Virus record (IMG/VR): IMGVR_UViG_3300028888_000064
Location: 32,001 to 96,000 of that record
Length of the DNA stretch: 64,000 nucleotides
Strand: one strand, 5' to 3'
Origin: a virus
Lineage: Duplodnaviria; Caudoviricetes
Shown: positions 2,764 to 30,664 of the stretch, one piece after another
Layout of the letters: each line of letters opens with the position of its first letter
Position numbering within the stretch: the stretch's first letter is position 1
Made by a program: the position numbers and the translations under genes
The notes under the pieces: model-generated
What the model was told of the DNA's origin: nothing
Databases searched by the model: none
What the model saw: only the letters and a program-made list of their open reading frames with translations

Positions 2764-2770
2764 ATACGAG

Positions 2771-3253: not shown

Positions 3254-3381
3254 TAATAAAAAGAAAAAAGAAAACTACTGTGGATAAACATAGTCTAAGA
3301 CAAGAGCAAGTTGAGGAGAAGAAAGCTCCCGGTTTTATTTCGACCTCAGAAATAAAGACAGTTACCTCACATTGGCCATGA
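3250..3381 (+). CDS. Unannotated 43-aa ORF with leader-like start
   Basis: MIIKRKKKTT...; ATGA overlaps with both neighbouring genes suggest translational coupling. Confidence 0.5.
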   Translation: MIIKRKKKTTVDKHSLRQEQVEEKKAPGFISTSEIKTVTSHWP

Positions 3382-4439
3382 TACTACTTAGACAGAAAGA
3401 ATATACTAGGGCTGAAAGAGAAGCGTTGAAAGAATTACTATTCAAAACTGGAAAACTTCGAAGATTACCAGGAGGCTCTAAAATGACCGCCAGGGATGTT
3501 GCTAGATTCAATAAATTAGCCGCGGATGTGCAACTTTGGACTAAAGGTTATAAACCTAAAAAAGAGGACTTTAAAAGTGCTAAGGTATTCTTAGAACATG
3601 CAGGTTTAGGAAAGTCCGCTGAAGAGTTAGAACACATAGCTAGTAAATACTCTAATAGAGAGGTGCTCTCTCGATGGCAAAGATTAAGACAGCGCCATAG
3701 TGAATTTGACATTCCGGGAATCAGCTCAAAACAACTAAAGAGGTTAAATAAAAGATATGATATCGATCGTAAGAACTGTCATAAAGTTCTTACAGATTTA
3801 GGTAGTTTAGAGAGAGGTGAAGGAAGTTTAATAGCAAACTTAGCAGAAGATGCTAAGAAAAAAAATATTCCTATTATTCAAAATTTAGGAGAGCCTTCAG
3901 AAAGTTTTACGGAATCATTAAATTATACGCGTAAACTTGCAGGAAGAGATAATGTGGAAGGAATCTTAAAAAGTATTAAGTATGATACTCCTGAATTTTC
4001 AACAAAACAAGCAAAGAGACTTGAATCTGCAGTAAAAAATAAAAACGTTGATAATATTGTAGTTATTGGTAAATCAACGGGCCCTGGAATTCTTGCTCAT
4101 GAATTAGGACATTGTAAGACATTAGATACAAGTTCTTCCGGTAGGTATCTAGATTTGGCAGGAAAAGCCGAAGATAGGGTATTACGTGTATTATCTAGAA
4201 AAAATGATACCCCCCATCTATTTTATCTACATAATAGGGCAAGGCAGATTGGGGATTCACTAGGTGAAATAGCTAATGAGAGTAGTGCCACTTCTTATGG
4301 TTTAGCCAGATTAAAGAAACATGGTTCTACTTCAAAACAATTAAAGAAAATGAAGGATGAATTAGGTCTTAATGGGGCTTTAGGAACATACGTAAATAAG
4401 AATAGAAAAAAAATTGCTGAAAGCTATTTAAACGAGTGA
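3378..4439 (+). CDS. Leader-bearing zinc metallopeptidase-like protein
   Basis: MILLRQKEYT leader; ILAHELGHC (HExxH) plus downstream ANESSAT third-ligand Glu; homologous to 40520. Confidence 0.75.
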   Translation: MILLRQKEYTRAEREALKELLFKTGKLRRLPGGSKMTARDVARFNKLAADVQLWTKGYKPKKEDFKSAKVFLEHAGLGKSAEELEHIASKYSNREVLSRWQRLRQRHSEFDIPGISSKQLKRLNKRYDIDRKNCHKVLTDLGSLERGEGSLIANLAEDAKKKNIPIIQNLGEPSESFTESLNYTRKLAGRDNVEGILKSIKYDTPEFSTKQAKRLESAVKNKNVDNIVVIGKSTGPGILAHELGHCKTLDTSSSGRYLDLAGKAEDRVLRVLSRKNDTPHLFYLHNRARQIGDSLGEIANESSATSYGLARLKKHGSTSKQLKKMKDELGLNGALGTYVNKNRKKIAESYLNE

Positions 4440-7934: not shown

Positions 7935-8339
7935 ATGATAATTCTCAGGAATAAATCATTCGCTGTTCCTCAGATGGGGGAGATGATTGATGCTGAGAAG
8001 AGTGGTAAATACCTTAATCCTCAGCCTCAACCAACTCAAGCACAACCTCAGCAAGCTCCACAAGAGATAACTTCAAAAGACCTTCAAATCGAGCAAATGA
8101 GGTTACAGAGACAACAGCGATTATTACAACATCAGAAAGCTAAGCTACAGGTGCAAGAAGGATTGGCAAGAACAAGAGCTATTACACAAAGGCAAAGAAT
8201 GGAAAACGAAAAAAGACAGCAAGATTTAAAAAATATAATGGATATACATAAAAGAATATACGACGATAACGAAGTACATAACCCTACATTATATAAATCA
8301 AAATCAACTATTACTGCGCCTGTAGCTATGCCTAAATAA
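7935..8339 (+). CDS. Leader-bearing Gln-rich coiled-coil protein
   Basis: MIILRNKSFA leader; Q/R-rich heptads. Confidence 0.7.
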   Translation: MIILRNKSFAVPQMGEMIDAEKSGKYLNPQPQPTQAQPQQAPQEITSKDLQIEQMRLQRQQRLLQHQKAKLQVQEGLARTRAITQRQRMENEKRQQDLKNIMDIHKRIYDDNEVHNPTLYKSKSTITAPVAMPK

Positions 8340-8451: not shown

Positions 8452-8720
8452 TGATTATAGCCCGGAAAAAACATAACAGTAACCCGGGGCAACACGAAGA
8501 CTCTGTGCTGCGAAATATAAATTTGGATCGGGTTGAAAAATTAGGAGATGACTTAGTATATAAATTAGCAGATGTTGCCGATACTGGTCTGAACTATGCT
8601 GCTGATTCAAACCCGGTCGTTGAAAAAGCAACATCGAAGCTTAGAAAGAGAGTTAGTGGATTTACGATACCAATAAAGAAGCTAATATCTCTAAAAAGAA
8701 AGAAGAATAAAGACGAATGA
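8451..8720 (+). CDS. Small basic protein with leader-like start
   Basis: MIIARKKH... Confidence 0.6.
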   Translation: MIIARKKHNSNPGQHEDSVLRNINLDRVEKLGDDLVYKLADVADTGLNYAADSNPVVEKATSKLRKRVSGFTIPIKKLISLKRKKNKDE

Positions 8721-9088
8721 TTATACTCAGAACAAAGGAGTTTTCCATTAGTGCTGCAGAATCCAAGTACTGGAAAGCACTTTGGGAAGAATACAATAAA
8801 AAGTTTAAAACTTCGAAACTAAAATTTGAGTTTAAAGATAGGCCAAATGGACTTATTAAACTCTCCTTTCAAGGAATTACTTGGGTTTATATTGAGTTTG
8901 ATAAGGTGAGAGCTACAGATTATAATGGAGAAAATGTTTCTGACTCTAAGTATTATGTCTGGCATGAACTCTCAAATAGTCTCGAAGAAGACATGCCTCT
9001 TGTTCAGAGAAATCCAATTACTTATGATAGCATAAAGTGGTTAATTGGAGAACTTAGGCGAGAGCTATTAACTAAAAAACCACATTGA
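8717..9088 (+). CDS. Leader-bearing hypothetical protein
   Basis: MIILRTKEFS leader. Confidence 0.7.
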   Translation: MIILRTKEFSISAAESKYWKALWEEYNKKFKTSKLKFEFKDRPNGLIKLSFQGITWVYIEFDKVRATDYNGENVSDSKYYVWHELSNSLEEDMPLVQRNPITYDSIKWLIGELRRELLTKKPH

Positions 9089-11119: not shown

Positions 11120-11320
11120 ATGATTATTATCAGAAATAAAACCTTTGCTCAACAGGAGAAAGCTCCACAGTGGATGCTAGATGAGGAAGGAGTGATTCAC
11201 CAGGATACGGATGGATCTTGGAGAATAGTGAATAGAAAAAAAGGCACTCTCTGGAATGCTAAGTATAAGAGTAAAGAATCTGCTCAAGCAGGACTTAGAG
11301 GGTATTTTGCAAATAAGTAG
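11120..11320 (+). CDS. Leader-bearing small protein
   Basis: MIIIRNKTFA leader. Confidence 0.7.
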   Translation: MIIIRNKTFAQQEKAPQWMLDEEGVIHQDTDGSWRIVNRKKGTLWNAKYKSKESAQAGLRGYFANK

Positions 11321-11329: not shown

Positions 11330-11527
11330 ATGATAGTCCTAAGACAAAAACAATATAGTTTTATTAAAAAGAGTTTATATAATAGACTACTAGAAAGAAC
11401 GAATAAGCAACTTCGTAATATTCAGGAGCTATCTAGGAATAAATTTGTTGTAGTTACTAATAAGGGTAGACAAATTTTTGAAAAAGCTAAAAGAGCTAGG
11501 TTTAGATTCCTGAATATGTTGAAGTAA
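11330..11527 (+). CDS. Leader-bearing small basic protein
   Basis: MIVLRQKQYS leader; K/R-rich. Confidence 0.7.
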   Translation: MIVLRQKQYSFIKKSLYNRLLERTNKQLRNIQELSRNKFVVVTNKGRQIFEKAKRARFRFLNMLK

Positions 11528-11544: not shown

Positions 11545-12006
11545 ATGATAATTATTAGACAAAAAGAATTTGCTAGGGCAATTCCTAAGGAATTAGTTGT
11601 AAAAGAGCTTGAACGTAGAGGATTGGCGGGAAAAATACATTCACCATTGGGTATTGGTATACCAAAATACATATCGAGGGACTTTAAAACTGTAAAAAAT
11701 CCTAGTTACGTTAAAGAAACTGAAGCAGCTTGGCAGAAATGGCAGAATCAGGGCAAGAGTTGGTCTACTGGAAAGTATAAAGACCTTGGCGTTAATCAAA
11801 GAATTAATCTTAAGGGAACTCTTGAAAACACTGGATTTGATAAATATACTACAAATCTTAAAACTGGTGGTAGAATCCCTTGGAAAAATAAAAAAGTATC
11901 GGCACGTAATGGAGTAGTAGATCACCCATCTAAGTTAATAGATGGTGATTCTGCTATTAAAGTAGCTTCAGGACATACATGGAACATTAGAGATTTCCAT
12001 CATTAA
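11545..12006 (+). CDS. Leader-bearing basic protein
   Basis: MIIIRQKEFA leader. Confidence 0.7.
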   Translation: MIIIRQKEFARAIPKELVVKELERRGLAGKIHSPLGIGIPKYISRDFKTVKNPSYVKETEAAWQKWQNQGKSWSTGKYKDLGVNQRINLKGTLENTGFDKYTTNLKTGGRIPWKNKKVSARNGVVDHPSKLIDGDSAIKVASGHTWNIRDFHH

Positions 12007-12937: not shown

Positions 12938-13504
12938 ATGATAATATTAAGACAGTACCTCCAAAAAATGTTTGGAATAGGTGATCATGAGTTAGCAAAA
13001 AAGGAGGGATTCAAGAATGTTAAGGACTACCGGTTCTGGCGAAGACGAATGAGTGAATCTGCTTCTCCTATAGATGTATTTATTGAAGGGAAAAATGTTG
13101 CTAACAGTGGACTTGAAAGTGTAGTTAGTAGGAATAGTGAAAGAGCACAGAAGCGTCTTAATACTATTGCAAAAAAACAAGGGTATAGTAGTAAATTCGT
13201 TAAGGATGCCCAAGCAGATCTTCTCAATGAATTTAAATATAATAAGCGTGCATTAGGACTCTCTAATCAAGGTGCATATGATTTAATAAATTCATATGAT
13301 AAAAGGGCTAATGCTGCAATTCAATATGAAAATTTAAAAAGAGAGTTAAAAACTAAAGGTCTTGATAAAATGCAGCAACTGGTGCCAGGTATGTCTAATA
13401 AAGATTTTGCCCAAGCATTAAAAAATAAATGGTTAACACCAAAAGAACGTCAAAATTTAAGTAAAAAGGGATTATCTGCTCTTAAAAAAGTTCGTATTCG
13501 TTAA
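12938..13504 (+). CDS. Leader-bearing basic protein
   Basis: MIILRQYLQKMFG; basic C-terminal tail. Confidence 0.7.
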   Translation: MIILRQYLQKMFGIGDHELAKKEGFKNVKDYRFWRRRMSESASPIDVFIEGKNVANSGLESVVSRNSERAQKRLNTIAKKQGYSSKFVKDAQADLLNEFKYNKRALGLSNQGAYDLINSYDKRANAAIQYENLKRELKTKGLDKMQQLVPGMSNKDFAQALKNKWLTPKERQNLSKKGLSALKKVRIR

Positions 13505-13640: not shown

Positions 13641-14066
13641 ATGATAGTTTTGAGACAAAAAATCTTCTTTCAGTCTAGGACTTCTGGAGAATACTTTACA
13701 GGAGCGGATATTAATAAGTCAGTTAAAGAACTCGATCATCAGGGTAGACTTCTTGGTATGTCCGAAGAAGGAATAAAGAGACATAGAGGAAATGCAATTA
13801 AGAATGCTTACGCACTGCATCAGGTAGACCCAATTAATATTCCTCTGGGAAAAACAGAAAGATTTGACGATTGGGTCAATAGAAAGTTAACTGCAAAGAG
13901 AAAGACTTTAGATTGGTTAGAAAATAAGGGCGTAATAAGAAAACTTAACGATCATTTTTGGACGATTCCTGATAAACCTGTGACTACAGCTGCTAAAGTT
14001 GAAAGTAAGGGGTTGGCAAAATCAGGAAAGATTATAAAGCGTGCTAAATCTCTTCTCAGAAAATAA
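13641..14066 (+). CDS. Leader-bearing basic protein
   Basis: MIVLRQKIFF leader; basic tail. Confidence 0.7.
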   Translation: MIVLRQKIFFQSRTSGEYFTGADINKSVKELDHQGRLLGMSEEGIKRHRGNAIKNAYALHQVDPINIPLGKTERFDDWVNRKLTAKRKTLDWLENKGVIRKLNDHFWTIPDKPVTTAAKVESKGLAKSGKIIKRAKSLLRK

Positions 14067-14166: not shown

Positions 14167-15453
14167 ATGGAAGTACGTGTGAGATGTTGTGGTGTTGGAC
14201 CCCAGTCTTTCGCATCAGACGGTTCTCACATAAGTGAAGAGGTAGTTAGACAGTACTTAAACTCAGAAGACTATAGACTTTCTATTGACGGTAAGTTAAC
14301 GATGGGTTATCTTACCCACAGAGGAAGATCGATCGAATTCTTACCTAGCTCTATTGGTAACCCTGGAGTAAAAAAGGTAATTGGTAGAGATGATGCAGGT
14401 CTTTGTGTTGGTGAAAATCTTCCTACTTTTACACACTATGTGAAAGAATTTTACATTGAAGATGTTCCAGGTCAGGGTCCTTGGCTTTGTGCATTGGTAC
14501 ATATTTTTGATGAGAAGGATGGGTTTGATCAAATTGCAACAGAAAATATTAAGCGATTAAAAGCTCTTATTCGGAGTGGTGTTCGTCTTACCTGCTCATT
14601 AGTAGTTCTTGCTTTCTGGTCTTCTGAAAATGGTAATGGAGTAGATGAGTGTAAGAAGATTAAGGCAATTAAGAGTCTGGATTGGACTGTTAATCCTAGC
14701 TTTGGCCCATTAGCTCGTATTACTGAAGTCTACGATGATGACCAACCTATGAAGGATGACCTTATTAAAACTTTCTCTGAGGTAGAAGGAGACAGTGATT
14801 TTATTAAGTCTCAGCCTAATAAGGAAGGTGAAATTAAGGTTAAGGTATACTCAGACCTAAGCAGTTTCGGGGATATGCCAAAAACTTCAAAGATTGGTGG
14901 TAGATTTACTGAATTAAAGGCAAAAGAATTTTCTAGTGTATGTACAATTACAGTAGATTCCTCTTCACCAGCAGTACAGAAAGAATTTACAGTTGCTACT
15001 ATAAAAGAGCGCGTAAGATATGCTAAATTTTCTCCAAGAATGAGATTTAGAAGGTTATTCTTGGAATATAAGCAGTACGTTAAGCAGTCGGGGGGTGCAG
15101 ATAAAATCGATCCTGAGACGCTTAAGATTTTAAAGTCGCTCTTCTTATCTGATATCAATCAGATCTTCACGGGTCTTACTTCAGAAATTATTGCCGGAAA
15201 GCAGATTAATACGCTTATTGGTGCAGCTTCTCTAGGTAAAGGTGTTAGACAGGCAGCTCAAAAATTACAGCTACCTTATAGAATGGCTTTTCAGGAGATG
15301 CAGAAAACTGGTAAGATTACCCCAATGAGATTTGAAAAGATCAAGACTGCTTATACAGAATTTTCCAAGGCAATGGTTGAAGAAGTATTCGGCGAGAGTC
15401 CTATCCCAGAAGGTTTGGAAGAAGAAATTAAAAATGAGGAGGGAAAACAATGA
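14167..15453 (+). CDS. Prohead core (maturation) protease, T4 gp21-like
   Basis: GYLTH (catalytic His, cf. GELxHP), GVRLTCS (Ser, cf. GVSSR) and LDWTVNPSF (cf. DxVxxPS); lies upstream of scaffold and capsid. Confidence 0.75.
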   Translation: MEVRVRCCGVGPQSFASDGSHISEEVVRQYLNSEDYRLSIDGKLTMGYLTHRGRSIEFLPSSIGNPGVKKVIGRDDAGLCVGENLPTFTHYVKEFYIEDVPGQGPWLCALVHIFDEKDGFDQIATENIKRLKALIRSGVRLTCSLVVLAFWSSENGNGVDECKKIKAIKSLDWTVNPSFGPLARITEVYDDDQPMKDDLIKTFSEVEGDSDFIKSQPNKEGEIKVKVYSDLSSFGDMPKTSKIGGRFTELKAKEFSSVCTITVDSSSPAVQKEFTVATIKERVRYAKFSPRMRFRRLFLEYKQYVKQSGGADKIDPETLKILKSLFLSDINQIFTGLTSEIIAGKQINTLIGAASLGKGVRQAAQKLQLPYRMAFQEMQKTGKITPMRFEKIKTAYTEFSKAMVEEVFGESPIPEGLEEEIKNEEGKQ

Positions 15454-16304
15454 AAAGATTAAAGATTTTCTCTAGTCCAGATCGCATTATTTTCCCAAGG
15501 AGGAAAATTTTCTCAGGAGATGCTCCAACAAATGAAGGTGGGATGGTATTAAGAGAGCTGGTTTGTAGAGACTGTGGTACAGTAATTACTTCTTCTCAGC
15601 ATCCAAGTCATGCGATTTGCCCTAATTGTGGAGGTACTCGCCTCGATATTAAGTTCCTATCACCTAGACAAGATACTGAAAGAGATCCGCATAAAGAAGA
15701 GAATATTAAGCCAGAGGAGTATAGAAAGCCTATTTTTGGTGATGCAGAGTATCAAAAGAGTCTTAGGGAATTCAGTGGAAAAACTATTCCAAAGTCTACT
15801 TTTGAAAAAAGATTTTCCGAAACACAGGCAGAGGGCTTAATAGAGAAAGGATTTGCTACAGTTGAAGGTGATTATGTAATTATTGATCCTATCAGCTATG
15901 AAGCAGAGAAGACATTCTCTAAATTGATTATATCAGTAACTAAAACATTAGAGCTTGACCCTGATATAGTTAGTGGAAAGATTGATAGGGGTAGTGTGAT
16001 TGATCATCTAGAGGAAGATCATAGACTACCAGAGAAAGGAATTATGGTTATCAGGAAGGCTCATGGGCTACCACTTGAGAGTCATATGTTCTGCGAGGAT
16101 TCATGGGTAGAAGATTCTGGCATTATTCCAGATCTTGAACTAGAATATAATAATCAAAGTTTTGGCGTAGATCAATTTCTATCGATCCTACATGACCGTT
16201 ATCCAGATGCCCCAGAGAATATTTTAGATATTCTTATAAAAGAGGGTGTTGTTCGATTAGACGGTACTCAAGTAACAATTCAGAGTAATAGTATTAAAAA
16301 CTAA
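15450..16304 (+). CDS. Prohead core-associated protein with zinc ribbon
   Basis: CRDCG...CPNCGG; multiple K/R-x-F-S sites (KIFS x2, REFS, KRFS, KTFS); between protease and scaffold. Confidence 0.55.
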   Translation: MKRLKIFSSPDRIIFPRRKIFSGDAPTNEGGMVLRELVCRDCGTVITSSQHPSHAICPNCGGTRLDIKFLSPRQDTERDPHKEENIKPEEYRKPIFGDAEYQKSLREFSGKTIPKSTFEKRFSETQAEGLIEKGFATVEGDYVIIDPISYEAEKTFSKLIISVTKTLELDPDIVSGKIDRGSVIDHLEEDHRLPEKGIMVIRKAHGLPLESHMFCEDSWVEDSGIIPDLELEYNNQSFGVDQFLSILHDRYPDAPENILDILIKEGVVRLDGTQVTIQSNSIKN

Positions 16305-16307
16305 AAT

Positions 16308-19106
16308 ATGAAAAATACTCGTTTTATGGAAGCTATGTTCTCCAATACTGATGAAGAACTAGCAAAGCAGGTAGATAGTGACATTAAGTCTGCTCAGGCA
16401 GGTAATGTTGTTGATACCGATGAAGTGAAATATGAAAGAACCGGAAATGGCAATGATGTTGCTATTACCGATAAGGCTAATGGTGAAGTAACTATTGCTC
16501 AAAAGAGTGCTGACGAAGCTGATACCTATGACCTCATCGCTGTTCCGGATGAACAACTGGAAAAGTATGTTCACCCGTCTTCTGATGGAGTTACTCCAGG
16601 TAATCAGGTTGGTGCTCCAGATGAGTATGTTAAGACTCACCTTGATGGACGTTCTGTTATCTCTCCAAATCTTCCAGATGGAGGTTTAAATCCAGACGCC
16701 GGACACGAAAGAAGTGTGACCGAAGTAGATGATGAGCATCAGGATGCTTGTCCTGCCTGTGGTCAGAGTCCTTGCGTATGTGGAGAAGAGGGTAGAGAGT
16801 TTTCAGTAACTTCCGACAATGATGCTTGGCAGAAGATTTTCTCCATGCCACAAGAATTCGTAGACTATCTTTTCAGTGAAGTTATCGAATCTGAGGAAAC
16901 TTCTAAGGTAGGTGACCTGAAAGTAGAGAAGTTGGCTGATGAAGATAATGCGGTTATCGTTACCAGCGAGTCAACTGGTGATCAGGTTAAAGTTAAACTA
17001 GAAGGAGACGAAATGGAAGTTACAGAACTTAACAGTAAGAGTTTTAGCAACGATGAGCAGTTCATGCCATTGTTTGTTATTGGCGTTCAGCCTTATGACC
17101 ATATCATTGTAGATGCACAAGAGTATGGTCAGGAAAGTGCAGAGGAATTAAAGGCACAGCTTGAAGAGGATGGTGTAGAAGCAGTTCAGATTTTTGATAA
17201 TCAGGACGAGGCTCGTGAATACGCTATTAATCTTCTTAATAGTCTTGGTGCTAATCCAGCTGCAGGCGATGTAGATGAACCAGAACTACAGAAGGAGTAT
17301 AGTGAAGCTGTAGGTTCAGTTGTTTATACTACATCATATAGAACAGATGACAGTGTTTTGATGAGTCGTATGTTCTCCGAGGAAGCTCTTGGTGTAGCAG
17401 ATACTCAGGACACTGTAGAAGACGCAATTAAGTCTGGTCAAGAGACCGATATGGATGGCGCAATCGTTATCCCAGTAGATGCCACTAATGCAATTATCCA
17501 GGATGGTGATGAATTTACTAAGGCTACTTTGAATGGTGAAGATATGATTCTTGAAAATATCGATCCAGAAGAGGCACAGGCTATTCTTGGTGATTCTGAT
17601 ATTATGGAATATGAGGCATACGACGATGACGAAGATGACGACGAGAGAGATTTCTCTGATGTTTATACAGATGAGTATGAAACTAAGTTCTTCTCCGAAT
17701 ATGAAGACTTCACTGATTACATGGAAAGACTCTTCTCTGACGAGTCTGATCAAGAGCACATTGAAGATGCTATTGAAAATGGTGAGGAAATCGAGAATGA
17801 AACTGAAATCATCACACCAGTTAGTGCTACTACTGCAGTAGTAGAGGATAAGGAAACTGGTGAGTTTACTAAGGCTGTTCTTGACGACGGTACTATCGAT
17901 GTTCATCCAATTGACAAGGATGAGGCAGAAGATATGATTAAGGACATCAAGGTAGAAGATGAGGTAGACGATGATGAGGAGGATGACGACGAGGAAGACG
18001 AAAAGGAATACTCTGATGTCTATACAGATGATACAGAAACTAGATTCTTCTCTGGAGATGAAGAGTTTACAGACTATATGGAAAGACTCTTTACGGGTGA
18101 ATCTGATCAAGACGTCATCGAAGATGCTATCGAAGGTGGTCAGCAGGTAGAAAATGAGGAGGAAATTATTACTCCAGTGAACAGAAAGACTGCTGTAGTA
18201 GAAGATAAGGGTAATGGCGAATTCTCTAAGGTAACAATTCTCAATGATGATCAAATTAATGTTCATCCAATCTCTGAAGATGAAGCTGATGAGCTTACTG
18301 GTGATCTAGTAGTAGACGATGAAGAGGAAGTTGAACCTGAACAGGGTGAGTTCTCTGATGTTTACACAGATGATACAGAGACTAGATTCTTCTCAGAGGA
18401 TGAAGACTTCACTGATTACATGGAAAGACTCTTTACAGGTGAAGCAGATGAAAAACTTATCGAGGATGCTATCGAAGATGGTCAGCAAGTAGAAAACGAC
18501 GGTGAGGTAATCACCCCAGTTGATTCTAAGACTGCGGTAGTAGAGGATAAGGAAACTGGTGAATTTACTAAGGCAACTCTTAGTGATGATGACATTGATG
18601 TAGAGCCTATTTCTGAAGAGGAAGCTGATGAGCTCACTGAAGACCTTAAGGTAGAGAATACTAAGGAAGAAGAGGATGAAAAGAAGTTCTCTGAGAACAA
18701 CGAGCTTCTCGCTAGATTCTTTGCAGATGCAGGTATTCAGCAAGCACAGCCACAGCAAGTAGTAGCTGCTCAGCCAGTTGCTCCTGCTCCAGCTCCAGCA
18801 GAACAAGTAGTTGTAGACCAAAACGGTAATCCAGTAGATCCTAATGCAGTTCCAGTTGAAGAAGGTGCTCCTGCTCCAACAGTAGAAAATATTGAGGATA
18901 AGGCTCTTGCTGCAATCCAGAGTATTAAGGCTGCAGTAGAAGAAGGTGCTGCTCAGATTATGGAAGCTAAGGCTGCTCCTGCTCCAAATGCAGAACCACA
19001 GATTCAGGAAGCTCAGTTCTCTGATTTCGAGTACTGCGATGACGATGATGATCAAAGAACATTCAGTGAGAATGATACCTTAATCTCTTGGCTAGCTAAT
19101 AAATAA
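16308..19106 (+). CDS. Acidic prohead scaffold/core protein with internal repeats
   Basis: 932 aa, very D/E-rich, directly upstream of the capsid gene; ~115-aa repeats; more than 15 x-[FY]-S motifs. Confidence 0.75.
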   Translation: MKNTRFMEAMFSNTDEELAKQVDSDIKSAQAGNVVDTDEVKYERTGNGNDVAITDKANGEVTIAQKSADEADTYDLIAVPDEQLEKYVHPSSDGVTPGNQVGAPDEYVKTHLDGRSVISPNLPDGGLNPDAGHERSVTEVDDEHQDACPACGQSPCVCGEEGREFSVTSDNDAWQKIFSMPQEFVDYLFSEVIESEETSKVGDLKVEKLADEDNAVIVTSESTGDQVKVKLEGDEMEVTELNSKSFSNDEQFMPLFVIGVQPYDHIIVDAQEYGQESAEELKAQLEEDGVEAVQIFDNQDEAREYAINLLNSLGANPAAGDVDEPELQKEYSEAVGSVVYTTSYRTDDSVLMSRMFSEEALGVADTQDTVEDAIKSGQETDMDGAIVIPVDATNAIIQDGDEFTKATLNGEDMILENIDPEEAQAILGDSDIMEYEAYDDDEDDDERDFSDVYTDEYETKFFSEYEDFTDYMERLFSDESDQEHIEDAIENGEEIENETEIITPVSATTAVVEDKETGEFTKAVLDDGTIDVHPIDKDEAEDMIKDIKVEDEVDDDEEDDDEEDEKEYSDVYTDDTETRFFSGDEEFTDYMERLFTGESDQDVIEDAIEGGQQVENEEEIITPVNRKTAVVEDKGNGEFSKVTILNDDQINVHPISEDEADELTGDLVVDDEEEVEPEQGEFSDVYTDDTETRFFSEDEDFTDYMERLFTGEADEKLIEDAIEDGQQVENDGEVITPVDSKTAVVEDKETGEFTKATLSDDDIDVEPISEEEADELTEDLKVENTKEEEDEKKFSENNELLARFFADAGIQQAQPQQVVAAQPVAPAPAPAEQVVVDQNGNPVDPNAVPVEEGAPAPTVENIEDKALAAIQSIKAAVEEGAAQIMEAKAAPAPNAEPQIQEAQFSDFEYCDDDDDQRTFSENDTLISWLANK
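17650..18690 (+). repeat. Three ~115-aa tandem repeats in the scaffold (plus more diverged upstream copies)
   Basis: [FY]SDVYTD[DE]xETxFFSxxE[DE]FTDYMERLF...IEDAIE.G...ITPV...AVVEDK..GEF occurs three times. Confidence 0.9.
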
Positions 19107-19134
19107 TAACTATTAAAATAATTAATATAATAAT

Positions 19135-20586
19135 ATGACTGATTTTTCGTATCTCATGAGTAATCCTGACATGCAGGTTGCTCTTAGAAATAGTTCAGTA
19201 TCTGCAGAAGATGCTGCAATTCGTGGTAGAGAATATGCAAAGATGTTCTCTCGTAATGCGGAGATGTTGGATACTCTCGGTATGGGCCGTAATTCTAACC
19301 TCCTTCAGAAGACTTTCTCTGGCTATGCAGAGACTCCACTTCTTAGCACTCAGTATTTTAATGCATCTGTTGCTTCTTATGTAAGCTCTTTTGCAGGTTA
19401 CATGAGTATTGAACGTGACTTCGACCAGCCTAATGGCTTGTTCTATTGGTTCGATGTCCTTGGTGTAACAGACCTTCGTCCAGTTATTCCTAACCTTGGT
19501 CCAGATAACTATCAGGATATTCAGACTATGGGTTACTTTGAGCTTGACAATCAGATCGAAAATAGCGGTAGCTATGCTCCAATCGTTGGTCGTAAGTTGA
19601 TCCCAGGTACAGTACGAGTTAAGATCGTTAACAATGATGATACTAAGTCTGAACTCGTAGATGACGGTCAGGGTCACTTCATGGCTGTTCCAGGCGTACT
19701 TGATGCTGCAACAGACGCTACAATCAACTATCTCAGTGGTAATATTACCTTTAAGCTTGCAAACCCAGCAGTAAAATCTGTTAAGGTCGTAGGTAAGGAA
19801 GATGTAACTGGTACTCCTAGCTGCACAACTGGTACTGCAAGTACTCACGCAAATGACAAGCGTTTCATCGCTAAGATGCAGCAGCTCGGTCTTAGCACAG
19901 TTCCTGATATGCTCGTAGCTGAATATAACATTGCAGCTCTCGGCGCACTCAAGAAGGCAACTGGCTCTGATATGGCTACGTTCTTGTTCACTAAGCTTCG
20001 TGAAATCTATACTAAGACTATCAACTATAAGCTAGTAACTACTCTTGAGAATGGTTATACTGGTAACACTATTGATGATCTTGATCTTTCTAATGGTCCT
20101 ACTTCTGGTCTTGCTCAGAATTTCTACGATTATCGTTCTCGTGTAGACCTCTTTGACTCTTTCTTGATCAACGTTGAGTCTGCACTCGCTACAAAGGCAG
20201 TTAAGGGCGTTAAGACCACTGCTTATGTTGCAGGTAATCGTGCAAGTAACCAGTTCCAGAAGGGTGGTATCATCGGTAAGTGGGAATCTAACACTAAGAT
20301 GTCTTATATCAATGACCTCCTTGGCTGGTACAATGGTATTCCAGTACTACGAAGTACAGATATTGCAGAGGAAGATGGCGAAGGTACATTCTACGCTATT
20401 CACAAGACTGCTGATGGTCAGATGGCTCCACTCGCACGTGGTATCTATATGCCTTTGACTGACACTCCAACTATTGGTAACTACAACAACCCTACTCAGA
20501 TGGCTGCTGGTATCTACTACCAGGAAGGTGTTCGAGTAATGGCTCCTGAACTTGTTCAGAAGGTTACATTCAAGGTTGGTTTCTAA
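19135..20586 (+). CDS. Major capsid protein (T4 gp23-like)
   Basis: 483 aa after protease and scaffold; FDQPNGLFYW (cf. gp23 MxxPTGLIF), EIYTKTIN and IYMPL motifs; codon usage typical of a highly expressed gene. Confidence 0.85.
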   Translation: MTDFSYLMSNPDMQVALRNSSVSAEDAAIRGREYAKMFSRNAEMLDTLGMGRNSNLLQKTFSGYAETPLLSTQYFNASVASYVSSFAGYMSIERDFDQPNGLFYWFDVLGVTDLRPVIPNLGPDNYQDIQTMGYFELDNQIENSGSYAPIVGRKLIPGTVRVKIVNNDDTKSELVDDGQGHFMAVPGVLDAATDATINYLSGNITFKLANPAVKSVKVVGKEDVTGTPSCTTGTASTHANDKRFIAKMQQLGLSTVPDMLVAEYNIAALGALKKATGSDMATFLFTKLREIYTKTINYKLVTTLENGYTGNTIDDLDLSNGPTSGLAQNFYDYRSRVDLFDSFLINVESALATKAVKGVKTTAYVAGNRASNQFQKGGIIGKWESNTKMSYINDLLGWYNGIPVLRSTDIAEEDGEGTFYAIHKTADGQMAPLARGIYMPLTDTPTIGNYNNPTQMAAGIYYQEGVRVMAPELVQKVTFKVGF

Positions 20587-20685: not shown

Positions 20686-20697
20686 AATTCACCTTAT

Positions 20698-20997
20698 ATG
20701 TCTGCAATAATAAAATTAAAAAGAAAACAGTTTGGCATATTCAATGTAGGGGCTAATTGGAATATGATGAAAAGCGCAATGAGCCATGCAAGTAAAGGTG
20801 GAGCATTGGCTAATAAGTATAACGCTATGGCTTGGAAGTCTGGTGCAAAAGCAGTAGGAGGTGCAATAGCTAAAACTGGAGCCATTGCAGGAGGCACAGC
20901 TCTTGCGGGAGGTGCTGTTCTTGGTGCAACCGGTTTTGGAGCATGTAATGCACTTTCTGGTGGTATGGGAAGCAGTGATGGATTAGATAATTGGTGA
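20698..20997 (+). CDS. Glycine-zipper protein with leader variant
   Basis: Likely start MSAIIKLKRKQFG; GAIAGGTALAGGAVLGATG. Confidence 0.65.
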   Translation: MSAIIKLKRKQFGIFNVGANWNMMKSAMSHASKGGALANKYNAMAWKSGAKAVGGAIAKTGAIAGGTALAGGAVLGATGFGACNALSGGMGSSDGLDNW

Positions 20998-21001: not shown

Positions 21002-21409
21002 ATGATAATTAGAATAAAAAGACAGAAATACTTCAGTGATAATCCCAACAATCCTAATCAGGAAAAAAAGGGTATGGGAACTGGTACTAAGCTTCTTATA
21101 GGTGCTGCTACTACTGCAGGATTATTTGCTGGAGCTAGACGAGGAATGTTAGGTTCTGGTCTTCAGATGTCTACTAATAGACTATGGGCACGTGGTGGAC
21201 ATATGTTAGGTAGTCAAGGAATGGTTAATAGCGCCAGAACAAGGTATTCACAGGGATTCGTTAAGAATCAAATAAAGGCTGGACAAGATGGATTTAGAAA
21301 TGTAAAGACAGATAGTGATGCGTTTAAAAATCTAGTCTCGAATCAAGAAAAAAATCTTGCTAAAAACAGTACATTATTTGGCAATGTTACCCCTCCACCA
21401 GCTAGTTAA
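21002..21409 (+). CDS. Leader-bearing Gly-rich hydrophobic protein
   Basis: MIIRIKRQKYFS; LLIGAATTAGLFAG. Confidence 0.7.
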   Translation: MIIRIKRQKYFSDNPNNPNQEKKGMGTGTKLLIGAATTAGLFAGARRGMLGSGLQMSTNRLWARGGHMLGSQGMVNSARTRYSQGFVKNQIKAGQDGFRNVKTDSDAFKNLVSNQEKNLAKNSTLFGNVTPPPAS

Positions 21410-22533: not shown

Positions 22534-22920
22534 ATGATTACATTTAAGAGGAAAGCATTAGAGACCGATATGGTTCCAGAAGCCATTAAGCACTTAGAGT
22601 CTGAAAAAATAGATTTTAATGTTATTTCCCAAAAAGAGGCAGAAGCTGCTAGTAAAGTAAATGCTAAATCTATGGTTCTCATGTCTTTCGTCAAAACAGA
22701 GAAAGGATTTTATCAGATTACTGTTAAAGATAAGGAGTTTTACAATTATACGAAAAAACTCTTAAGTGATCCTAATTATTGTAGAATGAGAATCGTAGAT
22801 GAAGATAGAAATAAAAGAACGGTTACCGTAGAAACAAATCACCTAGGAATAGTCTTAGATGTGATTGAAATTCTAGGTATTAAATACAATTTGTCTATTG
22901 TAAAGGATGATAAAGTTTAG
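22534..22920 (+). CDS. Hypothetical protein with leader variant
   Basis: MITFKRK start. Confidence 0.6.
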   Translation: MITFKRKALETDMVPEAIKHLESEKIDFNVISQKEAEAASKVNAKSMVLMSFVKTEKGFYQITVKDKEFYNYTKKLLSDPNYCRMRIVDEDRNKRTVTVETNHLGIVLDVIEILGIKYNLSIVKDDKV

Positions 22921-23659
22921 ACAAAAGATCTTCTCAGAGTATGATGCAATGAGAAGTCTTTACGTAGAAATAATGAAGCGACTCAATGGTGACAGAAGAA
23001 GATTTCCTATTATCACTATGAACGAACTTCCTGCTATTCTTAGGGGAAATAATGTAGTTATTGAGCGTTTCGTAATAAGTACTTCCTTTTTTAATAAAGA
23101 TAAATATAGGATGTACTTAAAAATAGGCGCAAGAGCTAAATTACCAGACGAAGTAAGATTACCTGGAAAATATTATGATAATAGATTGGCGAATGCTAAG
23201 GTAAGAATTAGTCCATCTATTCAAAATAGAGGTAATTGGAATAAATGGGTGGATGAAGTTCCTTCGAAATCTCAAGAAACTCAAGATCTTTTCGTGGATC
23301 CAAAGGATACTAAGACAGATAACTCTAGAAATGGAAAAGGTCGAGTTAAATTCGAGGAGAAACGGAAATCTGAGACAGATTCTGTGATGTATGGTTTAGA
23401 ACAGAGGTTGTTTGATGATAAGAATAAGAAAGGTAACAATAACAACAATAATGATGCTGGTGCTAAAATTTTATCTGCAGAAATTAACCCATATGTTGAT
23501 ATTGTTTATTACGTTCACAAACTTCTCGGAGAAGCAATTAAGTATGATAAGAAAGCAAGAACTTTAGTTCTTGAATTTGAATCAATTTCGGATGCCATTG
23601 ACGCTCTTAATATTTTACCATTTGGGATAAATTACAATATCTATTTATTAAATGCATAA
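22907..23659 (+). CDS. Leader-bearing hypothetical protein
   Basis: MIKFRQKIFS; internal QRLFD; poly-Asn linker. Confidence 0.7.
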   Translation: MIKFRQKIFSEYDAMRSLYVEIMKRLNGDRRRFPIITMNELPAILRGNNVVIERFVISTSFFNKDKYRMYLKIGARAKLPDEVRLPGKYYDNRLANAKVRISPSIQNRGNWNKWVDEVPSKSQETQDLFVDPKDTKTDNSRNGKGRVKFEEKRKSETDSVMYGLEQRLFDDKNKKGNNNNNNDAGAKILSAEINPYVDIVYYVHKLLGEAIKYDKKARTLVLEFESISDAIDALNILPFGINYNIYLLNA

Positions 23660-23884
23660 ATGATTTTACTACGGAATAGAAATTTCTCTGGAACTAATAT
23701 ACTTAATACAAGTGGTGCTACTGGATTTATCAGAGGGAGAAAATATGATACTGATCTTGATAGGCTTGGTAGAATGAACACTTCTCATAGAGAAATGGCT
23801 AGAGTAGGTGATTTATCTAGAGAAATGAGAGAAATGTCTTCAGAATTAAATAGAGGACTAAGACAAAAAGATTTAAGAGATTAA
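23660..23884 (+). CDS. Leader-bearing small protein
   Basis: MILLRNRNFS. Confidence 0.7.
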   Translation: MILLRNRNFSGTNILNTSGATGFIRGRKYDTDLDRLGRMNTSHREMARVGDLSREMREMSSELNRGLRQKDLRD

Positions 23885-23888: not shown

Positions 23889-24191
23889 ATGGCGACATAC
23901 AGACTAAAAAGGAAAACCTATGGAATTGCTGAAGCTGCAGGAAATACTATTGGTGGAATAGTAGGAGGTACTGGTAAAGCTCTTGACTCTACTCCAGCTG
24001 CAGTGGCTGGTGGTTTGGCTGGAGGTCACTTTATTGGAGGAGCAATAACAAGCGGCCTTGCATCTACTGGAGTCCTTGGATCAGCGCTAGCTGGACCACT
24101 TGGCTGGTTAGTCGGAGCTGGTATTGGTGCAGCTGCTACTAGAGGACTTGGTAAGGGTCTTAAGGGCGCCGCTAATGAATTGCAAACCTGA
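23889..24191 (+). CDS. Glycine-zipper protein with leader variant
   Basis: MATYRLKRKTYG; long GxxxG runs. Confidence 0.7.
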   Translation: MATYRLKRKTYGIAEAAGNTIGGIVGGTGKALDSTPAAVAGGLAGGHFIGGAITSGLASTGVLGSALAGPLGWLVGAGIGAAATRGLGKGLKGAANELQT

Positions 24192-24209: not shown

Positions 24210-25295
24210 ATGATTAGGTTTAAACAAAAAAACTTCTTTTTGCAGTTTGCAGGGATGGCAGCTATGACTGCTCTTCCTATGATGCAAGCAAGTGCACAGG
24301 GAAAAGAGGCCAAAGAACAAGCTGAACAGAGTGCTGCACAGATGGAAAAGCAAAATGAGTTAATTAAACAGCAAAACAAACAAATTGAAAAATTAGCTAT
24401 GAAAAATCCAAAAGCAGCTGCAGAATTTGGTAGAATAAAACAAGTAACCTATTCTATAGGTTCTACGCTAATGGGTCTTGGTCGAGCAAGTAAAGCTGCG
24501 TTCGGTTCTGGAGCAGCTAGTAATATAAAAATGGGACTTGGAATGGCTGGTGCAGGCTATTTGGCTAATAAGTACATTAGTCACGATATGAAGAAGAATG
24601 GACTAGACTATGACCAAGACGGAAATTTGATATCTACTAAAAATTACTCTGACCAAGCCACAGAAGTAGCTAAAAAATCTCTAGGAAAACGAATAGGTGG
24701 ACCACTCTTCAGTGTAGGCACAACATTAGCTTTAGGTGGTGGAATGGATATTATGGGTTATCAAGCTGATAAGAAAATGTTAAAAGATCAATTAGCTGCA
24801 ACTAATAATCCACAACAAGTTCCACAAACAACTACATACTCTGTAGTAGTTCCTAGACCAAAAAATAGAGCTAAACAGAAACTATTCTTTGCACTCAATC
24901 CTGCGGGTTTGTTTAAAAATATAGGAACGAGCGCACGAAATACTCTTAGTGGTTGGAAAACAGGCACACGCAACTATTTCAAAGATTGGAAAACTAATAT
25001 TTCTGGAACTGTTTCTAATTTTGCATCTTTTGGATTAGGTGGAACAAAGAATGTTCAGAAATTTGGAGAAAGTCTTAGAGCAGAGGGCGGAACCTTAGGG
25101 AAAGTTGGAGATTGGATTAAAGAGCACCCAGCTAGAGCTAACCTAGTTACCGCAGTACCTCTGGTAGGAGCTGCTTCACTTACTTGGGATGGAGCCACTA
25201 AAGCTGGAGAAGCTGTTGGCAGAAAAATAGATCCATCCGCATATAAATATAAAGACGCAAAGGAGAATGCGGCAAAACAACAATTACAACAATAA
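24210..25295 (+). CDS. Leader-bearing Gly/Ala-rich multi-segment protein (possible polyprotein)
   Basis: MIRFKQKNFF; internal QVTYS, TKNYS, TTTYS and KQKLFF sites between hydrophobic segments. Confidence 0.7.
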   Translation: MIRFKQKNFFLQFAGMAAMTALPMMQASAQGKEAKEQAEQSAAQMEKQNELIKQQNKQIEKLAMKNPKAAAEFGRIKQVTYSIGSTLMGLGRASKAAFGSGAASNIKMGLGMAGAGYLANKYISHDMKKNGLDYDQDGNLISTKNYSDQATEVAKKSLGKRIGGPLFSVGTTLALGGGMDIMGYQADKKMLKDQLAATNNPQQVPQTTTYSVVVPRPKNRAKQKLFFALNPAGLFKNIGTSARNTLSGWKTGTRNYFKDWKTNISGTVSNFASFGLGGTKNVQKFGESLRAEGGTLGKVGDWIKEHPARANLVTAVPLVGAASLTWDGATKAGEAVGRKIDPSAYKYKDAKENAAKQQLQQ

Positions 25296-25308: not shown

Positions 25309-25716
25309 ATGATTATTCTTAGAACTAAACAGTTTACTAAGTGGGACGAAACAGACCACCTAAAGGCCATGAAGGATTCTGATATTCTGGCTGAAAAGAA
25401 AAGAGATACAACTTCAGCTGGATCGATGATTCGCTCTGGCGTAGCTGGTGCTAGTATTGGTGCAGGCATTAGTGCAGGCGGCGCTTTGGCTGCAAAAGCT
25501 CTTGGTTATAAAGTCGGCGCAAGGAGAGCTGGTCTAGCAGGTGCAGCTATTGGTGCAGGCATTGGTGCTACAGCTTCTTGGTTAAAGAATAGAAAGAAGA
25601 ATAATGAGAATCGATTCTACAACCAACGTCTTGCATATGCACAGCGTCAAGCACTAAGACGTGAAAGAAAAGATTGGAAAGTAGGAATGACCCAACGTGA
25701 TGGCTACTCGTATTAA
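25309..25716 (+). CDS. Leader-bearing glycine-zipper protein
   Basis: Likely start MIILRTKQFT at 25309; GVAGASIGAGISAGG...GLAGAAIGAGIG. Confidence 0.75.
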   Translation: MIILRTKQFTKWDETDHLKAMKDSDILAEKKRDTTSAGSMIRSGVAGASIGAGISAGGALAAKALGYKVGARRAGLAGAAIGAGIGATASWLKNRKKNNENRFYNQRLAYAQRQALRRERKDWKVGMTQRDGYSY

Positions 25717-26284: not shown

Positions 26285-26977
26285 ATGATAAAATTTAAGC
26301 GAAAAGAATTTAGTAATTATATTTTATCAGATACTCTCAAGGGAGCAGGATATGGAGCTACTGCAGGAACATTTGCCGGTGCTTTAAATCTAGCTCCCAC
26401 ATTAAAGGGGAATAATTGGATTTCTAAGGCATATAATAGCCAAAAACAAAAAACTCGAGAAGCTAGTAAAGCAGGTGCATTTGAGCAAACTACTAACCAG
26501 AAGCTCTTAATAGCCGCTGCAGGTACATTGATCGGAGCCGCCCTAGGAGCTATCGTAGGTACCGTTAAGACTATTAGTGAAAAAATTTCCCAACATGGCA
26601 CTGACAATAGACTTCTTAAGAACGTAATGGGAAAATTAGGAACTATTGGATATAGAGAGGGTATTGACTATACGAGAGATCCTGAAACTGCAAACAGACT
26701 GAGAACAAAAGTTTGTCTGGTTATTACAAGAGATGCAGCTAATATTTCCCTCCTAGTAAATATGGTGAATGATAGTAAGCTCTCTAAGGATGCAGATAAG
26801 ATTCTTAGGAGTTTGCCAGGAAAACCTCAGATAAGATATAGTAGAACAACTGATAAATATAATGACATTACGATCTCTACTATCTCTAAGTCCGGCTCAA
26901 ATGTAGACTTAGTAACAGATATAGTAGATGGATTTATTAAAGCGGGTTATCCAGTTTACCTAGTTGAAGTAGGATAA
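26285..26977 (+). CDS. Leader-bearing glycine-zipper protein
   Basis: MIKFKRKEFS; GAGYGATAGTFAG and AAAGTLIGAALGAIVG. Confidence 0.7.
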   Translation: MIKFKRKEFSNYILSDTLKGAGYGATAGTFAGALNLAPTLKGNNWISKAYNSQKQKTREASKAGAFEQTTNQKLLIAAAGTLIGAALGAIVGTVKTISEKISQHGTDNRLLKNVMGKLGTIGYREGIDYTRDPETANRLRTKVCLVITRDAANISLLVNMVNDSKLSKDADKILRSLPGKPQIRYSRTTDKYNDITISTISKSGSNVDLVTDIVDGFIKAGYPVYLVEVG

Positions 26978-30109: not shown

Positions 30110-30664
30110 ATGATTATACTCAGACAAAAAGAATATGCTTCGAGGTTATTGAAAGCCGTAAGATCAATCAAGCGAGCAGGAAATAATGTGATGACTGCAG
30201 TTGATAATGCAGGTCTAAAGGCTGGTAATACCATAAAAAAAGCTATTACAGGTAAGAATATTCCTGTATCAGCAGAAGCTAATTTTAAGCCCAAGTCTAA
30301 TTTTCAAATTAATAGGGAGACGGTTAGAGTAAAAAATGCCGTAAAGGATGCTACTAATGCGATTAAAGAACGTCCAGGGGCAGTACTTGATGATGGCATA
30401 AGTTTCGCGGCTAAGAGTCCGATTGCAGCTGCAGGACAAGTAGGTAGTGTTACTCTTCCTCTTGCCAATCCCATATTTTTAGGTATTCCAATAGGTACTC
30501 CTTCAGTTGCTATTGATGTGGCAGCTAAGAAGCTCATTAAACCGTATGGTAGATATACAGAAAGAATTGCGAGAGCATATGATAGATCTAACTTTAGCAG
30601 AAATCTTAGAAGAATGCCTAATGCAACAGAAGTGGTTGACAACTTGAAGAGAAAGTTTAAATAA
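30110..30664 (+). CDS. Leader-bearing basic protein
   Basis: MIILRQKEYA. Confidence 0.75.
   Translation: MIILRQKEYASRLLKAVRSIKRAGNNVMTAVDNAGLKAGNTIKKAITGKNIPVSAEANFKPKSNFQINRETVRVKNAVKDATNAIKERPGAVLDDGISFAAKSPIAAAGQVGSVTLPLANPIFLGIPIGTPSVAIDVAAKKLIKPYGRYTERIARAYDRSNFSRNLRRMPNATEVVDNLKRKFK

Follow-up and report, generated by a model that had tools for sequence, protein, structure and literature searches.

In the stretch of viral DNA analysed here (the window: 64,000 nucleotides, bases 32001-96000 of the single linear contig IMGVR_UViG_3300028888_000064, 133,262 bp, 34% G+C), four adjacent open reading frames (ORFs), for a predicted prohead protease, a zinc-ribbon-like protein (ORF15450), an acidic scaffold-like protein and a major capsid protein, are enriched in a short motif, [KR]-x-[FY]-[SA]. 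The core of the same motif closes a short N-terminal leader found on at least 27 other ORFs. Overall, it appears that the protease probably recognises [KR]-x-[FY]-[S/A, also G/T] and matures the phage head by acting on the capsid protein, the scaffold, the leaders and itself. The source contig has a CheckV completeness estimate of 36%, and homologues of the contig's genes sit on contigs of 310-401 kb. Therefore, the window can be regarded as a fragment of a jumbo phage and, as part of the same best explanation, it is likely to encode the head assembly of a jumbo myovirus that has not been cultured.

Motif enrichment in four adjacent genes

The strict motif, [KR]-x-[FY]-[SA], was counted in each protein and compared with composition-preserving shuffles of the same protein (500 each). 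The scaffold-like protein has 15 sites against 0.50 expected. ORF15450, for which the initial annotation had claimed five or more sites, has six strict ones (residues 5, 19, 106, 120, 133, and 154) against 0.27 expected, a number reached in 0/500 shuffles. The protease and the capsid protein have three strict sites each (0.58 and 0.57 expected), all of them within residues 201-256 and 32-62, respectively. When the four genes were pooled and only sites past residue 20 were counted, there were 25 sites against 1.8 expected, a 13.6-fold excess that 0/300 shuffles reached. The remaining gene groups have observed-to-expected ratios of 0.98-1.26: 16 against 12.7 in the other ORFs of the leader block (n = 43), 18 against 18.4 in the tail, baseplate, and fibre ORFs (n = 26), and 18 against 17.1 in all other ORFs (n = 54). 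The motif excess is that of the four core genes and the N-terminal leaders, without the mature parts of the other leader-block proteins, and the difference between head proteins and tail or non-structural proteins that the initial annotation had anticipated is thus present.

Five permuted or altered control motifs were not enriched in the four core genes, and neither were the Glu-type motif [LI]xE (22 observed, 25.5 expected) and the phiKZ-type motif [SAG]xE (41 observed, 42.1 expected). As a control of the method, [LI]xE was counted in proteins of phage T4, where it is enriched in the gp22 scaffold (16 against 5.8 expected; 0/1000 shuffles), in gp21 (7 against 2.6), and in gp23 (8 against 4.0), while these three proteins have zero [KR]x[FY][SA] sites. 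The window mirrors the LxE pattern of T4 with a different motif, and, among the indirect arguments, this analogy speaks most strongly for protease sites at the enriched motif. By the same proxy, the earlier suggestion that the enzyme has a specificity other than Glu agrees with the counts.

The pattern is very improbable as a product of composition, repeats, or a repeated DNA element. The genome is AT-rich, with AAA, TTT, and TCT codons being common, and residues 447-709 of the scaffold-like protein contain the cluster ERDFSDVYTD..ETKFFSE.EDFTDYMERLF[ST] in three copies about 115 residues apart. Since 6/15 scaffold sites lie in these tandem repeats (two in each cluster), those six are not independent events. 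However, the composition-preserving shuffles never reach the observed counts, the permuted motifs are not enriched, the other nine scaffold sites lie outside the repeats, and the sites are conserved in divergent homologues.

The product of 16308-19106 has no family match in Pfam or PHROGs, and its position and acidic composition (D+E 28.6%, K+R 6.2%) suggest that it is a scaffold. In this protein, 13/18 [FY]S dipeptides are preceded by a basic residue, K or R, at P3, when the aromatic residue is taken as P1 and the small residue as P1'. ORF15450 has weak, sub-threshold Zn-ribbon matches in Pfam and is probably a prohead core or cargo protein. Nearly all peptides that the initial annotation had quoted from these and the neighbouring proteins are found where it had placed them; its EREFS in the scaffold is GREFS, and its leader LRNKTFA reads IIRNKTFA (MIIIRNKTFA).

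The capsid protein was identified by weak tblastn matches to annotated major capsid proteins, those of Escherichia phage IME392 (27%, E 7e-7) and Cobetia phage Carin-5; its alignment profile had no match among solved structures in the PDB. The standard libraries are nearly blind to this phage. The K-x-F-S motif at residues 36-39 (KMFS) and 59-62 is present in 32/32 unique capsid sequences with a variable P2, and K59, F61, and S62 are invariant in the homologues. Column conservation is 0.53 at residues 41-50 and 0.69 at residues 51-60, and it jumps to 0.98 at residues 61-80. The second site therefore lies at the border between variable and conserved sequence, which fits a propeptide junction, and the mature N-terminus may be Ser62, with F61|S62 as the candidate scissile bond. 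The initial annotation had given LLQKTFSG its exact place, residues 56-63, and its estimate of a mature start near residue 62-63 is consistent with the alignment. It had also listed GREYA; REYA does occur at residues 32-35, but P3 is R in only 9/20 aligned capsid proteins, and GREYA was rejected as a third conserved site.

A predicted relative of T4 gp21

The protease consists of a catalytic domain (approximately residues 1-190), a variable linker (192-279), and a helical C-terminal domain (276-428). An AlphaFold2 (AF2) model based on an alignment of 21 sequences (predicted local distance difference test, pLDDT, 75.9) is beta-rich in residues 1-190, followed by a disordered linker and the helical domain. 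In a Foldseek search with this model, the T4 gp21 chains of 5jbl took ranks 1-3 (prob 0.96-0.97, E 0.02-0.03). VIA-align against 5jbl_B gave Z 9.3 and a root-mean-square deviation of 3.2 A over 132/164 residues (model residues 1-177), and the next row, with Z 6.1, is unrelated and concerns the helical domain.

H51, S144, and D172 are invariant in the 21 protease homologues (50-78% identity). They stand in short motifs that are collinear with those of T4 gp21: G-x-L-x-H (His51 and T4 His85), A-x-I-R-x-G-x5-S (Ser144 and T4 Ser140), and D-x4-P-S (Asp172 and T4 Asp168), with a Ser-to-Asp spacing of 28 in both enzymes. His85 and Ser140 are catalytic residues of T4 gp21, and D168 would be its catalytic Asp. 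On the basis of the model and these motifs, the N-terminal domain is likely to be a diverged relative of T4 gp21, whose family (PF03420, MEROPS S77) has a herpesvirus-assemblin-like fold, with a predicted intact His-Ser-Asp triad. The label 'gp21-like' in the initial annotation agrees with the fold and the invariant collinear residues, although it has no counterpart in a Pfam S77 match.

In 21/21 homologues, all four linker sites match [KR]x[FY][SAGT]. Conservation is 0.93 at P3, P1, and P1' compared to 0.54 at the remaining positions of the linker, with no constraint on P2; fixed P3, P1, and P1' with a variable P2 would be typical of a protease site. These are the sites reported initially for the C-terminal extension (KTFS at 201, KVYS at 226, KEFS at 253, and QKEFT at 271-275), and all of them are indeed past the catalytic domain. 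A complex prediction with protease residues 1-195 and capsid residues 25-90 scored 0.02 and returned no answer.

N-terminal leaders and the proposed maturation

A strict leader pattern, M-[hydrophobic]3-[KR]...[FY][SAGTF], was found in 25 ORFs, all within window positions 2181-43132, and in 0/80 ORFs of at least 60 residues elsewhere in the contig. Two more leaders, at 2608 and 20698, were added by eye, so that the total is at least 27 (Table 1). The leaders have 9-13 residues, and most of them resemble M-I-I-L-R-Q-K-E-F|S, with the aromatic residue at position 9 and [FY][SAGT] at residues 9-10. Their core is the same motif that is enriched and conserved in the scaffold, the protease linker, and the capsid propeptide. 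The leader codons vary synonymously (ATT/ATA, five Leu codons, TTT/TTC, TAT/TAC, and Ser TCN and AGT), and the DNA upstream of the leader starts is unrelated among the leader genes. Therefore, selection acts on the leader peptide, and a repeated nucleotide element or start-region signal was rejected as its explanation; both observations also speak against an artefact of repeated DNA.

Degenerate leader-like starts, in which the core [KR]x[FY][SAGT] is not cleanly present, occur in several further ORFs: 1753 (MILFRNNKPQ), 3214 (MIIKRKKKTT), 7388 (VIVLRPIKICF), 8451 (MIIARKKHNS), and 25697 (MATRIKLPRKAFD). In ORF 22534-22920 and its orthologues (L001-L078), the leader head MITF[KR]xK is kept in all relatives examined and the aromatic-small pair is missing. 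Its product may be addressed like the others yet remain uncut, which hints at two separable parts of the leader. Long Gly/Ala-rich hydrophobic stretches are present in many leader-bearing proteins (the 12114, 20659, 23889, 24210, 25267, and 26285 ORFs), and these are possibly membrane-active or ejection proteins.

A proposed maturation of the head can be potentially described as follows. The protease would enter the prohead through its C-terminal domain and cut between an aromatic P1 and a small P1', with a basic P3 and a free P2. T4 LxE sites and herpesvirus V/L-x-A|S sites share a P3-x-P1 layout, and the bond is placed between the aromatic and the small residue because of this analogy with gp21-type and herpesvirus proteases and because of the small P1'. 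The 61-residue capsid propeptide would be removed, leaving Ser62 as the new N-terminus, and would itself also be cut at F38|S39. If cut at all of its sites, the 932-residue scaffold would be chopped to 16 pieces of 11-165 residues, able to exit the shell. By cutting at the four linker sites, the protease would release itself from its C-terminal tether, and the zinc-ribbon protein and the N-terminus of the portal would be trimmed. Finally, the 9-residue leader (M-I-I-L-R-Q-K-E-F|S) would be clipped from at least 27 other proteins, acting as an address that ends in a protease site, like a T4 capsid targeting sequence. In such a scheme, the [L/I/A/S/G]-x-Glu sites of T4, phiKZ, and SPN3US would be replaced by basic-x-aromatic|small.

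An uncut motif, serving as a docking peptide comparable to those for encapsulin cargo loading and recruiting scaffold, protease, and cargo into the prohead, is unlikely. Such a docking signal would also look like repeated scaffold motifs together with a shared N-terminal tag, and the ORF 22534-22920 group keeps the MI-x-F-[KR]-x-K head without the aromatic-small pair; part of the leader may therefore have a role apart from cleavage. However, docking leaves unexplained the exact position of the capsid site at the border of variable and conserved sequence, the placement of the four protease sites in the linker that connects its catalytic domain to the tether, and the likeness to the enrichment of T4 cleavage sites in scaffold, protease, and capsid. 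In addition, fixed P3, P1, and P1' with a free P2 is the layout of known cleavage sites such as the AXE and SXE sites of SPN3US and phiKZ, which have a P3-x-P1 arrangement (PMC5694885). Docking and cleavage are also compatible with each other.

Relatives, known systems, and neighbouring features

A related capsid protein is encoded at 90 IMG/VR loci, and the standard genetic code is used in the window's relatives. Among 16 diverse relatives, scaffold homologues contain 10-20 sites (0.3-0.7 expected), the ORF15450 homologue has 5-8, and the protease has 3-5 where its gene is intact; neighbouring genes carry leaders. One complete relative, G001, has a genome of 400,901 bp that ends in terminal repeats and encodes a capsid protein of 71% identity. 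When its 292 ORFs of at least 150 residues were ranked by motif excess, with the sequence analysed in separate 20-kb pieces, three genes occupied the top places genome-wide: the scaffold, ranked first, with 10 sites (0.36 expected), the ORF15450 homologue with six (0.28 expected), and the protease with five (0.53 expected). A loose leader pattern occurs in 22/62 ORFs of its structural block at 149-204 kb compared to 16/464 elsewhere (Fisher p 5e-13).

In the largest set of relatives, the L004 group, to which the window capsid protein is 75% identical, the protease gene (L004:5007-6635) is divided into three ORFs with gaps of about 140-170 nucleotides, and the terminase gene (L004:37-1891) is also in pieces. 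Such split genes would fit the small group I introns that have been described in Jug phages.

Screening 1.84 billion representatives with a profile yielded 229 proteins of the protease family. Distant members include lone catalytic domains of about 165 residues, with the helical C-terminal domain on a separate, longer protein that is rich in K-x-F-S (seen among proteins P0196, P0206, P0215 and P0200, P0237); therefore, the protease fusion seen in the window is not universal. Locus searches with single distant protease homologues found no loci, and a search with an alignment of 14 distant homologues found two. In these two distant-clade loci, the leader heads differ (MIYFDQETRQFS, MSLIEYTKQFG, and MSYYTYIPETRSFS), the core [KR]-x-F-[SAGT] is unchanged, and the proteases themselves carry 3 and 5 motif sites. 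Thus, the motif core accompanies the protease family, and the remainder of the leader changes.

The system of T4 gp21 resembles that of the window in the fold of the catalytic domain (here that of a predicted model) with collinear His/Ser/Asp motifs and in the protease-scaffold-capsid gene order, which is 21-22-23 in T4 and has ORF15450 between protease and scaffold here. Both have a scaffold dense with sites and a capsid propeptide, of about 65 residues in T4 and a predicted length of about 61 here. The substrates of T4 gp21 are the gp23 propeptide, the gp22 scaffold, gp24, and internal proteins with targeting sequences. Only a handful of T4 head proteins bear leaders, whereas at least 27 genes do so in the window, and the T4 targeting sequences do both docking and cleavage. 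The window differs further in its proposed site, basic-x-aromatic|small instead of L/I-x-Glu|, in a protease without a detectable Pfam S77 profile match, and in the fusion of this protease to a helical C-terminal domain of about 150 residues via the four-site linker. T4 head proteins bear capsid targeting sequences of 10-20 residues, and the leaders, whose role in the window may be similar, resemble them as short N-terminal sequences on unrelated proteins (PMC5694885).

The proteases of T4, phiKZ, 201phi2-1, and SPN3US each cleave on the C-terminal side of glutamate, the T4 gp21 triad has been aligned with H77, S153, and D178 of SPN3US gp245, and phiKZ gp175 and SPN3US gp245 cleave their own C-termini (PMC5694885). 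Like the latter two enzymes (MEROPS S80), the window protease would be a diverged gp21 relative in a jumbo phage, with predicted C-terminal self-cleavage. Many head and ejection proteins are processed in phiKZ and SPN3US, with several sites inside propeptides (PMC5694885, PMC10052503), as is predicted for the window. Unlike the enzyme proposed here, those enzymes cut after Glu (S/A/G-x-E, A-x-E), and their propeptides are mostly longer than 100 residues and dissimilar, whereas the window has a uniform 9-residue leader.

The sites may be real and yet be cut by another protease, a host Prp-like enzyme or a phage ClpP, but this is slightly less likely still than uncut docking. Prp removes a short N-terminal peptide at Phe|Ala from the capsid and scaffold proteins of Staphylococcus phage 80alpha, and in 80alpha-related phages tail proteins, too, share only the cleaved N-terminal peptide (PMC5744158). 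In Prp/L27-type processing, the cut falls roughly 9-14 residues into the protein. The leaders here, ending in [FY][SAGT], resemble in kind such substrates, which are non-homologous capsid, scaffold, and tail proteins that lose a short N-terminal peptide at a Phe|small site (PMC5744158). Leader genes also occur among the tail genes, which suits a soluble protease, and a host enzyme is possible. CLP_protease is listed among the frequent domains of Jug phages (PMC12880540), and G001 encodes a canonical ClpP (G001:C1:285323-285844, L105, minus strand; Pfam CLP_protease, E 1e-73). However, Prp is a host cysteine protease of Firmicutes that has one site per protein and none inside the scaffold, whereas the window phage has its own predicted gp21-like enzyme, and no match to Prp (PF04327) was found in the contig or in G001. 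The ClpP gene of G001 is on the opposite strand, is separated from the head module by about 120 kb, and looks like a housekeeping type. The motif co-occurs with the gp21-like protease family in three groups (the window's family, G001, and the distant clade) and is conserved in 21/21 sequences inside the protease's own linker, as expected for self-cleavage. We therefore prefer the gp21-like protease as the acting enzyme.

Besides this ClpP gene, several points weigh against processing by the gp21-like protease at the proposed motif. Its homology to gp21 rests on a predicted fold and short motifs because profile searches fail: Pfam S77 (PF03420) matched nothing in the contig (E <= 10) and nothing in two relatives (E <= 1), and an hhalign comparison of the protease profile with T4 gp21 as a single sequence gave an insignificant probability of 0.9%, in an alignment that placed His51 on the T4 GELNH segment. 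The collinear motifs were chosen after inspection of both sequences. A tblastn search with the protease and three distant homologues had no match in 50,697 phage records, the clade being uncultured. The AF2 model of the capsid protein is poor (pLDDT 52.5), and therefore the start of the N-arm is not shown by the model. Some scaffold F-S dipeptides lack a basic P3 (AMFS, YLFS, GEFS twice, and AQFS), the basic residue stands at P5 in two leaders, and P1' is Phe in two others; therefore, the rule looks looser than written. The mature regions of the leader-block proteins are not depleted of the motif (16 against 12.7), so that counter-selection is not visible. Finally, some leader genes lie among the tail genes (30110, 30682, and 40097-42704), and therefore either head-internal proteins are encoded there or processing extends beyond the prohead.

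Jug phages of Bacteroides and Phocaeicola, from animal or human guts, have genomes of 360-402 kb, in which genes including those for the prohead protease and terminase are split (PMC12880540). The window's relatives resemble them in their large contigs (355-401 kb), in the protease and terminase genes in pieces in the L004 group, and in the standard genetic code. They differ in that the P-type (E1-E2) ATPase domain highlighted in PMC12880540 was not found in G001, the window capsid protein shares only 75% identity with the L004 group, and the assignment of these relatives to the Jug lineage is unproven. The main text of PMC12880540 does not contain the words 'N-terminal', 'leader', or 'propeptide' and does not use 'cleavage' in a relevant sense, and our literature search found no description of the leader or the motif.

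A broader evolutionary scheme, to which we give about an even chance, suggests that a widespread uncultured jumbo clade, probably the gut Jug lineage and beyond, retuned an ancient protease of the gp21/herpesvirus type, a type so far known to cut only after Glu, to basic-x-aromatic|small and pairs it with a uniform, cleavable 9-residue leader for loading dozens of different proteins as cargo, in which the head M-I-I-L-R-Q would be the address and K-x-F|S the cut site. A two-part leader fits because one orthologue group keeps only the head, and the distant clade swaps the head and keeps the cut site. What would be new is the changed recognition rule and the unusually large, uniform set of leader-tagged proteins, on the known theme of gp21-type maturation. 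If true, an old enzyme family shared by gp21 and herpesviruses could change its specificity along with every one of its substrates. From sequence only, the motif allows predictions for abundant phages that have not been grown: where the mature capsid protein begins, what becomes of the scaffold, and which proteins are packed into the head. The packaged, possibly injected, proteome would then be readable directly from sequence. Attaching the leader to foreign proteins might also allow them to be loaded into such capsids.

Nearly all window genes are on the plus strand. The structural block has the order portal-like ORF (5289), terminase-like ORF (9178), protease (14167), ORF15450, the acidic 932-residue protein (16308), the capsid protein (19135), and the tail sheath (27020, matching PHROG 23), and large tail, baseplate, and fibre proteins are encoded downstream. 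Zero matches were found in Pfam and PHROGs for the protease, the scaffold, the capsid protein, the portal-like ORF, and the terminase, in Pfam for 10 distant protease homologues, and in PHROGs for ORF 29273 and the nine leader-bearing proteins tested. A sequence search of the PDB with the protease family profile gave no match.

The portal-like ORF begins MKKSEGFFQKIFG, and the initial annotation was right in placing a motif-like sequence at the portal N-terminus: this 568-residue ORF has K-I-F-G at residues 10-13, and [QE]K[IVML]FG near the N-terminus is kept in the relatives listed. Its nearest named ESM Atlas cluster is the T4-like portal gp20 (score 0.97, 171 shared features), which serves as a lead to a portal function, and Pfam, PHROGs, and the PDB gave no match except for one chance-level match in a structure database.

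Table 1. Features of the head-assembly region, with positions in the window.
Feature	Position	Strand	Gene or basis
Leader MIILRQKEYS	2181..2210	+	131-aa ORF 2181-2576
Leader IILRRKTYS, GTG start	2608..2637	+	51-aa ORF 2608-2763
Leader MIILRIKNFT	2771..2800	+	Likely true start of ORF 2717-3253
Leader MILLRQKEYT	3378..3407	+	ORF ending at 4439
Portal-like protein, 568 aa	5289..6995	+	ESM Atlas neighbour cluster, lead only
Portal-like conserved N-terminal K-I-F-G, aa 10-13	5316-5327	+	Kept in relatives
Leader MIILRNKSFA	7935..7964	+	ORF 7935-8339
Leader MIILRTKEFS	8717..8746	+	ORF 8717-9088
Leader MIIIRNKTFA	11120..11149	+	ORF ending at 11320
Leader MIVLRQKQYS	11330..11359	+	ORF 11330-11527
Leader MIIIRQKEFA	11545..11574	+	ORF 11545-12006
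Variant leader MLIKRNVYFS, basic residue at P5 not P3	12114..12143	+	ORF 12114-12845
Longer leader MIILRQYLQKMFG	12938..12976	+	ORF 12938-13504
Leader MIVLRQKIFF, P1' = Phe	13641..13670	+	ORF 13641-14066
Predicted prohead protease, 428 aa	14167..15453	+	Predicted fold, collinear motifs
Linker site KTFS, aa 201-204	14767-14778	+	Candidate self-cleavage site
Linker site KVYS, aa 226-229	14842-14853	+	Candidate self-cleavage site
Linker site KEFS, aa 253-256	14923-14934	+	Candidate self-cleavage site
Linker site KEFT, aa 272-275	14980-14991	+	Candidate self-cleavage site
ORF15450, 284 aa, zinc-ribbon-like CxxC...CxxC segment	15450..16304	+	6 motif sites
Acidic scaffold-like protein, 932 aa, 15 motif sites	16308..19106	+	Position and composition
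Major capsid protein, 483 aa	19135..20586	+	tblastn to annotated capsid proteins
Predicted capsid propeptide, aa 1-61	19135..19317	+	Conserved sites and conservation step
Internal propeptide site KMFS, aa 36-39	19240-19251	+	Kept in 32/32 unique capsid proteins
Predicted maturation site KTFS, aa 59-62	19309-19320	+	Kept in 32/32 unique capsid proteins
Leader MSAIIKLKRKQFG	20698..20736	+	Likely true start inside ORF 20659-20997
Leader MIIRIKRQKYFS	21002..21037	+	ORF 21002-21409
Leader MIKFRQKIFS	22907..22936	+	ORF 22907-23659
Leader MILLRNRNFS	23660..23689	+	ORF 23660-23884
Leader MATYRLKRKTYG	23889..23924	+	ORF 23889-24191
Leader MIRFKQKNFF, P1' = Phe	24210..24239	+	ORF 24210-25295
Leader MIILRTKQFT	25309..25338	+	Likely true start of ORF ending at 25716
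Leader MIKFKRKEFS	26285..26314	+	ORF 26285-26977
Leader MIILRQKEYA	30110..30139	+	ORF 30110-30664, among tail genes
Leader MIKFKKKEFT	30682..30711	+	530-aa ORF 30682-32274, among tail genes
Leader MIFKQKTYS	40097..40123	+	ORF 40097-40513
Leader MIVVRQKEYG	40520..40549	+	ORF 40520-41431
Leader MIVIRQKEFG	41428..41457	+	ORF 41428-41958
Leader MIILRHKNFS	42279..42308	+	ORF 42279-42713
Variant leader MIILRNSYFS	42719..42748	+	Likely true start of ORF ending at 43132

At the end of the window and beyond it (62699-64000; G000:C1:94699-117931 in the source contig), three huge fibre-region ORFs of 2379, 1648, and 2883 residues have [KR]-x-[FY]-[SA] at chance level. Outside the window, the source contig contains two arrays of tandem paralogous ORFs: 12 ORFs of about 140-180 residues on the plus strand at G000:C1:21779-27551, and eight ORFs of about 180-230 residues on the minus strand at G000:C1:126406-131201.

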